Origin: a virus
Length of the DNA: 27,885 bases
Direction: 5' to 3' (one strand)
Virus genome (UHGV): UHGV-1486778
Part shown: positions 25,359 to 27,885 of the stretch, one piece after another
How positions within the stretch are numbered: position 1 is the stretch's first letter
How the letters are laid out: each line of letters begins with the position of its first letter
Translations under genes and position numbers: made by a program
Notes under the pieces: generated by a model
The model's database searches: none
Seen by the model: the letters and a program-made list of their open reading frames with translations, nothing else
What the model was told of the DNA's origin: nothing

Positions 25359-26291
25359 ATGCATCGTATAGACACGAAAACCGCGCAGAAGGATAAGTTC
25401 GGCGCGGGTAAGAACGGTTTTACCCGTGGTAACCCCCAGACCTGCACGCCTGCCACCGATCTGGATGATGACTACTTTGACATGTTGCAGGAGGAGCTTT
25501 GCAGCGTTGTGGAGGCGTCCGGTGCCAGCTTGGATAAGGGGCGGCACGACCAGCTACTTACCGCGCTTCGCGCGCTGCTGTTAAGCCGCAAGAATCCGTT
25601 TGGCGATATCAAATCGGATGGCACGGTGAAAACGGCTCTCGAAAACCTTGGTTTGGGAGATGGCTCGGGGCGTTACAGCAAAACTGTCGTTTTTTCATCG
25701 TCGGGTTCATATACGTGGCCAGCTGACGTAAAACGAATTGACGTTATTCTGACTGCGGCGGGCGGCGGTGGCGGTGGATGTAACGCGGAGAACGCAAATC
25801 AGACATTTTCAGGGGCTGGCGGAGGAGCCGGAGGTACTGTTTTTGCCACTATTTATGCGACAGACAACGATGCCGGGCCAGGGACCTATACAGTGACAAT
25901 TGGTAGCGGTGGTAGTGGTGCCAATGGGCCAGGGTCTGGAAATAATGGCGGTAATAGTTCGTTCATGACATTAACTGCGCTCGGCGGCCAGGGTGGGCAA
26001 TGGGGCGGCGCTACAAATACCGCTGGCGGGCGCGGTGGCTCAGGCTCTGGCGGTTATAAAACAGAACAAGGCGGAGACGGTTCAGACGGACAGGCGGGCC
26101 AGGCGCTATTAGTAGGCAATGGGGCATCGAGCTATTGGGGTGGCGGCGGCCGCGCTGGGCAACTGAGCGGTAATCCTGGAGTTTGCTCTGGCTCCGGCGG
26201 CGGGGGTGCATACGATAATAGCTATTCACACACGTCAGGACGTGGCGGGCACGGAGCTAATGGCGTGCTGGTAATTCGGGAGTACATGTAA
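25359..26291 (+). CDS. Tail fibre protein: conserved N-terminal domain plus glycine-rich C-terminal domain
   Basis: N-terminus [26 protein letters not shown] is typical of Mu/e14/P2-type side tail fibres. The C-terminal roughly 200 aa are dominated by GG/GS runs. Followed by a tail fibre assembly gene. Confidence 0.7.
25636..25661. other. Candidate Hin/Gin/Pin-type crossover-site-like imperfect palindrome inside the tail fibre gene
   Basis: ctctcGAAAACC tt GGTTTgggagat: a 12-bp perfect palindrome with a 2-bp core tt and partly symmetric flanks. Resembles hix/gix sites (AAACC-NN-GGTTT core) and lies at the junction of the conserved N-domain and the variable C-domain. Confidence 0.35.
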
Positions 26292-26696
26292 ATGAATGAT
26301 ATCTATGCAGTTGTTGATAATAACGTTGTTATTAATGTCATTATCTGGGACGGAATTTCTGAATGGAAACCAGAGGCTGGTAATTTAGTTCCGTTAAACG
26401 GCGATGCTGGCATCGGTTGGTCATATTCAGACGGAGTATTTACCGCGCCACCTCCCCCAGAACGCTCTCACAACGCGTTAGTTGCGGAGGCTGAGCTGCA
26501 GAAATCAGCACTACTGACCGTAGCAAATAACACAATAGCACCGCTGCAGGATGCCGTTGATTTGGAAATGGCGACAGACGATGAACAGGCGTTACTGCTG
26601 GCGTGGAAAAAATACAGGGTACTGCTGAACCGTGTTGATACCTCAGCGGCACCCGAAATAGAGTGGCCTACGCAACCGGGGGAGCGGGCCAGTTGA
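26292..26696 (+). CDS. Tail fibre assembly protein (Tfa family)
   Basis: 134 aa with the C-terminal Tfa signature [19 protein letters not shown]. Immediately follows the fibre gene. Confidence 0.75.
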
Positions 26697-26817
26697 TATC
26701 AGGCGCAGCGTCAGCATCAACTGCTGTCACTGCGTCGATGTAGTCGAGTACCGCATTCAGCCGCGTTTTTTCATCATCAGTCAGTTTGCGGCCTGCATTT
26801 CTCCGTTGACATCTTTG
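26668..26817 (-). pseudogene. Relic 3' end of a second, inverted tail fibre assembly gene (tfa')
   Basis: The minus-strand frame encodes ...[38 protein letters not shown]-stop, with no start codon (49 codons, bounded by a stop). It shares the Tfa C-terminal AAP(D/E)I(N/E)WP signature and overlaps the 3' end of the + strand tfa by 29 nt. Confidence 0.55.
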
Positions 26818-27039
26818 TTATATGGTACAACTGCGCAGAGGCCTGTCTCTTCAATTGTGCCAGTTGAATACTACGATACAACGCTCGGCCTTCCTGTTTG
26901 GTGGAACATAACCACATCTACGAGGAAAAGAGCTTACGGTACTAATACTTAGACTTTAAATTTATTTTCGTTTATTAATCATTGAAGTAAAACAAATTAT
27001 TAGGCGAAAATGTAGCGAATTTATGTACTTATACATGTT

Positions 27040-27082
27040 ACCCTGAAGGAAAATTCTTTTAATAAACCTTCTCCTTCAGGGT
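27040..27082. terminator. Hairpin between the convergent tail-fibre and gtr-like transcription units (candidate bidirectional terminator)
   Basis: Inverted repeat accctgaagga (27040-27050) / tccttcagggt (27072-27082) in an AT-rich context, lying 7 nt downstream of the minus-strand gene stop at 27090-27092. Confidence 0.5.
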
Positions 27083-27089
27083 AAAATAA

Positions 27090-27885
27090 TTATTTGACGT
27101 AAATGTGGTTTCTGTATTTGACAAAAATCACATCACACACACTTTCAATATCTTCAGGTTGACCATAAATTTTCTTCACAATATTCAATTGTTCTTTATT
27201 CTCAAGAATAAAGAAATTATTTCCTTTGTTATACCATTCGCTATTTGTAAGCCAGTTGTCTCTTTTAATTTCATTGTTATCAAAAAGTATATTTGCTATT
27301 TTTATGTCTCCATTCACACCAACAGAGTTGGTAAATGCAAAAGGGGCATATCCATAATTCACTTTGTGCTCGTTGATTTTTTCTCTAATACATGATATCT
27401 GATTGTATCTATTATCAGTGGAGCCATTAATATTTATTGTTTTAATTCCTGATATGATGCCCAAAAAAGCTATTAATAAAATAATGCTTTTTTTATTAAA
27501 TTTAGATCTTGACAAAAGAATTACTGCCATAATGAAGACGGGAACAAGGTATCTTATTGTCCATATATTTCTTGGGAGGTTACTACCAATATAAGCAGAT
27601 GTCATGATTAAAATAGACAATGACAAACATATATCAATAACGCTTCTGTTTTTAAAAAGATTTCTGAAAGTGAAGTAAATTAATGCAACAACACCAGCAA
27701 AGCGTATTGCTTTAGATAATAGATGCAGTGATGGTGTTATCTGCTCACCAAATATGTCTGCATTAAAAAACAATAAAGTTCCACTTACTGCGGTATTTAT
27801 ATTAACTAAAATATTGTCATACTCAACAATCTTTACATCTGTTAGTCCTGGCAATGTAAAGCTTCCAAGGTTTAAAAACAAAAAA
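27090..27885 (-). CDS. Polytopic membrane protein, 3' part only (5' end beyond the window edge); candidate serotype-specific O-antigen glucosyltransferase (Gtr type-specific / GtrC-like)
   Basis: Very AT-rich gene convergent with the tail genes. Several TM helices followed by a hydrophilic C-terminal domain of about 130 aa. The frame is still open at the window edge. Its position after the tail fibre genes matches gtr cassettes in SfV-like and CPS-53-like prophages. Confidence 0.45.
   Translation of the reverse strand, partial: FLFLNLGSFTLPGLTDVKIVEYDNILVNINTAVSGTLLFFNADIFGEQITPSLHLLSKAIRFAGVVALIYFTFRNLFKNRSVIDICLSLSILIMTSAYIGSNLPRNIWTIRYLVPVFIMAVILLSRSKFNKKSIILLIAFLGIISGIKTININGSTDNRYNQISCIREKINEHKVNYGYAPFAFTNSVGVNGDIKIANILFDNNEIKRDNWLTNSEWYNKGNNFFILENKEQLNIVKKIYGQPEDIESVCDVIFVKYRNHIYVK

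Follow-up and report, generated by a model that had tools for sequence, protein, structure and literature searches.

A convergent fragment of a tail-fibre chaperone gene, hereafter the stub, is, as a whole explanation of the locus, very probably the dead remnant of the second, oppositely oriented chaperone gene of a Pin/Gin/Cin-type invertible segment. The evidence comprises homology and locus architecture, an orphan crossover site within the fibre gene, the lack of any invertase, a comparative series of relatives, and a tailspike relic at the truncated end. The initial annotation, made from the sequence alone, had called the fragment a relic of an invertible host-range segment; homology, the orphan site, and the comparative series support that interpretation. 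The window—the whole stretch analyzed, 27,885 nucleotides of UHGV virus genome UHGV-1486778—is the late region of an SfV/e14-type myovirus prophage with a Mu-like tail, inserted at argW in Escherichia coli; its tail genes include Mu Gp48/YmfQ and baseplate J. Feature coordinates are collected in Table 1.

Table 1. Features of the fibre locus and of the sequence to its right
Feature	Position in window	Strand	Basis or remark
Intact tail-fibre gene, 310 aa; cassette apparently frozen in the expressed position	25359–26291	+	Single ATG ORF
Orphan 26-bp crossover site of Pin/Gin/Cin type, where the constant and variable parts of the fibre gene meet	25636–25661		Core identical to e14 stfP site
Intact tfa chaperone gene, 134 aa, partner of the expressed fibre tip	26292–26696	+	Caudo_TAP, E 4.6e-33; phrog_188, E 1e-35
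tfa′ relic (pseudogene): last 42 codons and stop of a TfaE-type gene	26668–26796	−	Pfam, PHROG, tblastn, PGAP
Seven nonhomologous codons prolonging the open frame of the stub	26797–26817	−	TfaE homology lost there (DNA and protein alignments)
Tailspike-type relic: last ~45 codons including stop (48-codon ORF), 5′ side cut at the joint	26806–26952	+	phrog_20787, tblastn
Stable hairpin separating the relics from the 3′ (stop) end of the convergent gtr gene	27038–27084		Inverted repeat, 13-bp stem
Serotype-specific gtr gene, 3′ part (485 aa in full)	27090–27885	−	GC ~0.30; annotation of a 100%-identical genome

The Stub Matches the C-Terminal End of TfaE-Type Proteins

Translated on the minus strand, positions 26668–26817 form an open frame of 49 codons, with the upstream stop at 26818–26820. 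The ORF listing holds no ATG/GTG/TTG ORF of at least 30 aa in this frame; together with the upstream stop, this makes "startless," the term used in the initial annotation, a fair label. The annotated extent of 49 codons held up only in part: Tfa homology is limited to 42 codons and the stop, and the N-terminal seven, encoding QRCQRRN, are unrelated junction sequence in both DNA and protein alignments. As described, the frame overlaps the 3′ end of the intact tfa, convergently and by 29 nt (26668–26696).

That the frame ends in a Tfa C-terminus was borne out by profile and pairwise comparisons. Against Pfam PF02413 (Caudo_TAP), the stub scored 43 bits (E 6.1e-11; gathering cutoff, 22.1 bits), with residues 11–47 aligned to positions 94–130 of the 131-position profile—its extreme C-terminus, the last 37 positions. 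Four PHROG tail-fibre-assembly families matched at E 1e-14 to 8e-7. With e14 TfaE as tblastn query, residues 159–200 aligned to 26796–26671 at 71% identity; protein alignment gave 76% to the Tfa of a P1-like plasmid and only 35–41% to the TfaP type or the window's own Tfa. Similarity is not confined to a short terminal motif: it runs along the whole block AGRKLT..E.TRLNAVLDYIDAVTA.D...APD..WP..P.A., that is, 42 residues of TfaE type. Judged by these alignments, the stub has Tfa ancestry and belongs to the TfaE type. The match is far beyond chance, and the possibility of a chance ORF was rejected. A tblastn search of the phage collection with the 43-aa stub peptide returned no match, probably through query length and composition filtering, and a word-indexed protein search with the stub yielded eight short fragments and no full-length ancestors.

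The stub does not carry the complete Caudo_TAP domain of an intact gene: the equivalent of TfaE residues 1–158 is missing, as is a start codon. Given the partial profile, the missing start, and the upstream stop, it is best described as a pseudogene fragment of the Tfa family, not a member gene. RefSeq/PGAP annotation of a 100%-identical genome likewise labels 26668–26796 [quoted passage not shown]

Two other origins for this piece of sequence can be weighed here. One is a local inverted partial duplication of the window's own tfa 3′ end, or debris from homologous exchange between tfa genes. Tfa C-termini do share ...APD(I/V)xWPxxP, tfa genes are recombination hot spots, and in the contigs L022/L124, described below, this tfa 3′ end is attached to a P2-like tail module; yet the stub is only about 32–35% identical to the C-terminus of its neighbor, against 71–76% to TfaE-type proteins, its 29-nt overlap matches that of intact invertible segments, and the adjoining fibre gene contains a crossover site. 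We consider this origin exceedingly improbable.

The other, which is very unlikely, is that the stub is retained for a function: it would encode a small protein, act as an antisense element, or contribute to the late operon's 3′ end or terminator. Although the stub persists at 95–100% identity in 69 genomes, five of the six codon changes in the homologous part among its seven haplotypes are nonsynonymous, and one haplotype has a stop codon in the seven-codon extension; mostly nonsynonymous change together with this stop fits neutral decay. The 29 nt common to the stub and the live tfa are invariant, but this is explained by the overlapping intact gene. Some databases list 38–47-aa "proteins" from the stub, although no ATG, GTG, or TTG opens a frame of at least 30 aa. 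Promoter and terminator scans gave nothing convincing within the stub and called no terminator-like site there, the Rfam scan placed no family over it, and SfV, SfI, and SfII manage without it.

The Rfam scan gave a subthreshold match to RF02111 ("IS009") at 26459–26647 (+), within the coding 3′ half of the intact tfa; it scored 47 bits (E 1.6e-9), below the gathering score of 117. This match most likely reflects tfa coding homology in the family seed, not an RNA gene.

The Fibre Gene Carries an Orphan Crossover Site and a Single Cassette

In the Mu G, P1 C, and p15B Min segments, the fibre gene is split at a 26-bp site, and two convergent cassettes, each a tip with its chaperone, lie next to an adjacent serine invertase. 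These are working switches, whereas the window holds a one-sided remnant, and the likeness is one of general design. The fibre gene of the window shows the same division: an e14 StfP-type constant N-terminus (25359 to ~25635) is followed by a glycine-rich variable C-terminal part (25662–26291; Pfam Gly_rich_2 on fibre residues 114–307, E 5e-19). The boundary is occupied by the orphan site, CTCTCGAAAACC TT GGTTTGGGAGAT (in full, CTCTCGAAAACCTTGGTTTGGGAGAT), whose 24-nt core is identical to the e14 stfP site; the inverted e14 partner, TTCTCCCAAACCAACGTTTATGAAAA, adjoins pinE. DNA homology to e14, SfV, SfI, SfII, SfIV, SKA5-type phages, and K-12 yfdL stops at 25660–25666, so that the homology break coincides with the right edge of the site. 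The 26-bp sequence conforms to the published consensus for Din-family crossover sites (PMC4134206); for the Din family (Gin, Cin, Min), the review cited in that paper is Sandmeier 1994.

No second crossover site was found in the window at three or fewer mismatches to either e14 site or to a half-site. The interval between tfa and gtr contains no serine invertase ORF, the annotation of the 14.6-kb region through intS lists none, and tblastn detected no PinE-like sequence in the contigs of the window lineage (L001, L002, L016–L034, and L100–L122). The window contains one complete cassette (25662–26696) and neither an alternative fibre tip nor a second complete cassette. The locus therefore lacks the invertase, the second site, and the second cassette of a Din-family segment, in agreement with the initial annotation, which had listed the alternative fibre, the rest of tfa′, and the invertase as missing. 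With a single crossover site, inversion would not be expected; one cassette plus a 42-codon stub of a second chaperone points to descent from an invertible segment rather than to a working one.

PGAP divides the fibre ORF into a "stfP pseudogene, missing C-terminus" and a "glycine-rich domain-containing protein" (L001, 6060–6992), the latter CDS beginning at a TTG within the crossover site. The fibre frame is continuous, so this split looks like an annotation artefact of the cassette structure.

Two contigs, L108 and L109, carry the window's fibre tip and tfa on a different constant fibre part (46% identity). Their homology to the window begins at 25604 and 25621, respectively, placing the switch point 15–30 nt upstream of the crossover site. 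These junctions show cassette exchange at or near the site.

Relatives Retain tfa′ to Different Extents

Among phages and prophages whose YmfQ and fibre N-terminus are 96–98% identical to the window's, tfa′ forms a graded series. It is full length in e14 and SKA5, where stf′ and an invertase follow. SfIV keeps TfaE residues 30–200 (171 codons), cut by an IS element and followed by gtrIV; tfaS of K-12 CPS-53 keeps residues 105–199 (95 codons), followed by gtr cargo; and the window keeps residues 159–200 (42 codons), followed by the tailspike relic and gtr cargo. In SfV, SfI, and SfII, tfa′ is absent and cargo follows. The 29-nt tfa/tfa′ overlap recurs in e14 tfaP/tfaE, CPS-53 yfdK/tfaS, SfIV gp21/gp22, SKA5, and a P1-like plasmid.

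The full stf-tfa/tfa′-stf′-invertase unit, which the initial annotation had expected in related prophages, is retained in e14 and in phage SKA5. The e14 P region (stfP-tfaP/tfaE-stfE-pinE) and SKA5 resemble the window in YmfQ and the fibre N-terminus (96–97%), in an identical left crossover site, in the 29-nt overlap, and in a second chaperone of TfaE type; of the e14 proteins, TfaE is the one the stub resembles (71%, versus 35–41% for the TfaP type). They differ in keeping a full tfa′, an alternative tip, and an invertase (and, in e14, the second site), none of which the window has; as read from this comparison, the window should be unable to invert. The glycine-rich tip that it expresses is absent from e14. 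More broadly, the premise that convergent tfa/tfa′ pairs mark invertible segments is well founded: a full Pin-type invertase gene was present at 23 of 28 loci on viral contigs that had a convergent pair with a TfaE-like gene (not full length in every case) and at least 1.5 kb of flank.

In E. coli, the intact sequences closest to the stub at the DNA level lie in a P1-like plasmid segment (75%) and a P2-like prophage (72%), and both adjoin recombinase genes. A closely similar expressed cassette exists elsewhere in silent form: in a further P2-like prophage (L123), two inverted crossover sites flank a silent cassette that corresponds to the window's fibre tip (97% aa) and Tfa (94% aa) and lies beside a pin gene, and the pin-proximal site shares the window's right half-site, GGTTTGGGAGAT. 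This prophage holds an intact 1.9-kb invertible segment (L123, 4345–6244; IMGVR_UViG_2571042420_000006) whose active fibre, of 504 aa, comes without its own chaperone gene; the sole tfa belongs to the silent cassette, and the partner is a different fibre tip with no TfaE-type gene.

In none of 5,426 complete E. coli genomes does this tfa stand next to a full tfa′. A scan of species-representative genomes returned two distant Pantoea loci only, one of them a complete switch, with 51% Tfa identity. No full-length tfa′ above 76% aa or 75% DNA identity to the stub was found beside this tfa, so that no direct ancestor was recovered.

Other contigs show further states of such loci. In L078 (2402–4003) and L080, tfa′ is cut to ~73 codons directly beside a retained pin gene; by its gene content, this is a different decay route, with the alternative fibre tip apparently lost and the invertase kept. 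The reverse frozen state is seen in L064, which expresses the stfE/tfaE type, lacks a convergent tfa, and has IntS 2.6 kb downstream.

The closest named counterpart of the stub is tfaS of K-12 CPS-53 (KpLE1), between yfdK and yodE/gtrS (yfdI). The order in CPS-53 is yfdL (a fibre pseudogene), yfdK (a tfa), convergent tfaS, and gtrS-gtrB-gtrA-intS-argW, and it shares with the window argW beside yfdC, intS, gtrA/gtrB, a TfaE-type stub, and the absence of an invertase; its yfdL remnant has the same crossover site. The two loci differ in fibre tip and tfa type, in the heavy deletion of CPS-53 elsewhere, and in the stub itself (TfaE residues 105–199 at 94% identity in tfaS, 159–200 at 71% in the window). 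They do not share a truncation joint: no similarity extends beyond the stubs, where CPS-53 has the yodE region and the window the tailspike relic.

ORF22 of SfIV is comparable in belonging to the same phage family, in its convergent position after tfa with a 29-nt overlap, in the O-antigen cargo, and in the missing invertase. It differs in retaining 171 of 200 TfaE-equivalent codons at 92% identity and in being cut by an IS element. [quoted passage not shown] From the series above, SfIV ORF22 and K-12 tfaS would be better read as switch relics than as extra chaperones.

The Truncated End Abuts a Tailspike Relic

TfaE homology is lost at about 26797–26805, which marks the recombination joint. 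On its other side lies a plus-strand relic with the motif ...GTTAQRP...YYDTTLGLPVWWN..., whose translation ends in ...LLYGTTAQRPVSSIVPVEYYDTTLGLPVWWNITTSTRKRAYGTNT before the stop. It matches phrog_20787, "virion structural protein" (E 2.8e-8), and, by tblastn, the last ~40 residues of CBA120 orf212 and of kagunavirus tailspikes (E 7e-7 to 2e-6). In every case the match lies at the very C-terminus; CBA120 orf212 ends in ...YYDTTLGIPIWWNSVSGTWKNAAGADV and a stop. The tailspike relic at the joint looks like a new detail.

Outside the family of sequences that share the joint, the best match to the tailspike relic is 54–60% identical, and the donor was not found; a word-indexed protein search with the relic gave three short fragments only and no full-length ancestors. 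One contig (L204) has a tailspike C-terminus directly beside a 97%-identical IntS. The tailspikes of Sf6 and N7 were considered as donors and rejected: they show no similarity and lack the C-terminal ...YYDTTLGxPxWWN motif. From 26806 rightwards, the window nonetheless resembles Sf6, HK620, and N7 in order—tailspike (+), terminator, and then, convergently, a conversion gene and int. The tailspikes of these three phages are intact and without the motif of the relic, so none of them is the actual donor.

In K-12, tfaS and gtrS are separated by a stretch annotated as encoding YodE, a toxic small protein (L004, 5498–5644), and the window sequence at that place is unrelated to it. As a homologue of the small plus-strand ORF, yodE was accordingly rejected.

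Each of the two relics, stub and tailspike, is cut where it meets the other, which is the mark of one joint. The initial annotation had described the switch as apparently decayed and overwritten. Its loss stands; gradual decay is probably not how it came about, because the tfa′ relic directly abuts a plus-strand tailspike relic, which favors a single illegitimate recombination. On this arrangement of homologies, such an event is the most likely origin of the joint; a two-step history of deletion followed by insertion fits as well as the single joint.

The Joint Is Constant and the Cargo Beyond It Varies

The AT-rich block that the initial annotation had noted after the relic proved to be a gtr O-antigen glucosylation operon followed by intS. 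It is the O-antigen glucosylation cargo of a serotype-converting prophage, located at the K-12 CPS-53 locus. The order in identical E. coli genomes is ymfQ, fibre, tfa, stub, the 485-aa AT-rich gene, gtrB, gtrA, intS, argW, and yfdC, so that the type-specific gtr-gtrB-gtrA cargo is followed by intS and tRNA-Arg (argW) beyond the window. In the 100%-identical genome, the annotation reads hypothetical protein, GT2 glycosyltransferase, GtrA family protein, IntS, tRNA-Arg, and yfdC.

The hairpin that separates the relics from the cargo (RNA fold −22.1 kcal/mol, z −5.0) is a likely candidate for a bidirectional terminator; a simple terminator scan did not call it. The IntS gene is 95–97% identical at the DNA level to the integrases of Sf6, HK620, CUS-3, and N7, all P22-like podoviruses, and in Sf6 and N7 a tailspike gene likewise runs toward a terminator that faces a conversion gene or ORF and then int.

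Of 5,426 complete E. coli genomes, 69 combine the fibre tip, tfa, stub, and tailspike relic. All 69 have the same joint and none has an intact tfa′; the tailspike relic is present in no others of the set and is always linked to the stub. The same joint was found in more than 20 viral contigs. Cargo beyond the tailspike relic varies: besides the gtr type of the window, at least two further gtr types and an acyltransferase occur there. The joint thus stands beside at least four different cargos, with cargo breakpoints at 26894, about 26940, and 26950, and would be older than the cargo swaps.

These distributions bear on gradual decay in situ, in which an ancestor with stf-tfa/tfa′-stf′-pin followed by gtr-int would have undergone successive deletions and insertions, the tailspike piece arriving separately with cargo replacement. 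Such a history would suit the IS element lying directly at the truncated end of the 171-codon tfa′ of SfIV, the different truncation points and following sequences of CPS-53 and the window, and the variable cargo breakpoints. Set against it are a stub/tailspike boundary that does not change with the cargo, being fixed in all 69 E. coli genomes and in over 20 viral contigs, and fragments on both sides cut at the same point, again as expected of one joint. On balance, gradual decay is unlikely.

The block also occurs on another kind of tail. L022/L124 (IMGVR_UViG_3300045988_135787) has a P2-like tail module (gpV, W, J, I, and an H-like 386-aa fibre) and a different tfa N-terminus. From about window position 26535 on, its content is that of the window: the tfa 3′ end, the stub, the tailspike relic, the gtr genes, and gtrA/gtrB all recur. 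The same pattern is present in two complete E. coli genomes (ET650 and 300081).

Discussion

The preferred explanation, loss of a switch through a joint inside tfa′, can be set out as follows. The ancestor would have had a constant fibre part, a crossover site, tip A with its tfa, a convergent tfa′ with tip B, a second site, and a serine invertase, and inversion would have swapped the fibre tip together with its chaperone. One illegitimate recombination would then have joined a myovirus tail module, cut inside tfa′, to a tailspike-cargo-integrase module of P22-like origin. The loss would have begun at tfa′ codon ~158 and taken the remaining part of tfa′, tip B, the second site, and the invertase. 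At the break, what was left of tfa′ would have met the final ~45 codons of a tailspike gene, behind which lie the hairpin, the O-antigen cargo, and an Sf6/HK620-type integrase. The cargo past the break would be gtr here and an acyltransferase or other gtr types in relatives. The outcome would be a fibre locked in one orientation with the glycine-rich tip, an orphan site, and a nonfunctional tfa′ stub. We infer the order of events, the single-step joint, and the P22-like donor.

The stub is already annotated as a RefSeq pseudogene, its reading as a relic follows from textbook knowledge, and no new mechanism is involved. The 310-aa fibre gene can be annotated as intact despite the PGAP split. 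For the phage, the finding means a prophage fibre locked to one receptor specificity, unlike the switch-capable relatives of e14 and SKA5 type. For the family, it provides a structural example of how SfV-like serotype-converting phages are assembled, from a Mu-like tail with a Pin switch and an Sf6/HK620-type tailspike-cargo-integrase module. A further role is conceivable, and we put it forward tentatively: the block of tfa 3′ end, stub, and tailspike relic may act as a linker, a homologous-recombination handle that moves O-antigen cargo and the argW integrase between tail modules (SfV-type, P2-type myovirus, and P22-type podovirus), and the orphan site may be a live substrate for the Pin-type invertases of coresident prophages. 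If so, the locus could capture new fibre-tip cassettes or take part in inversions between prophages.
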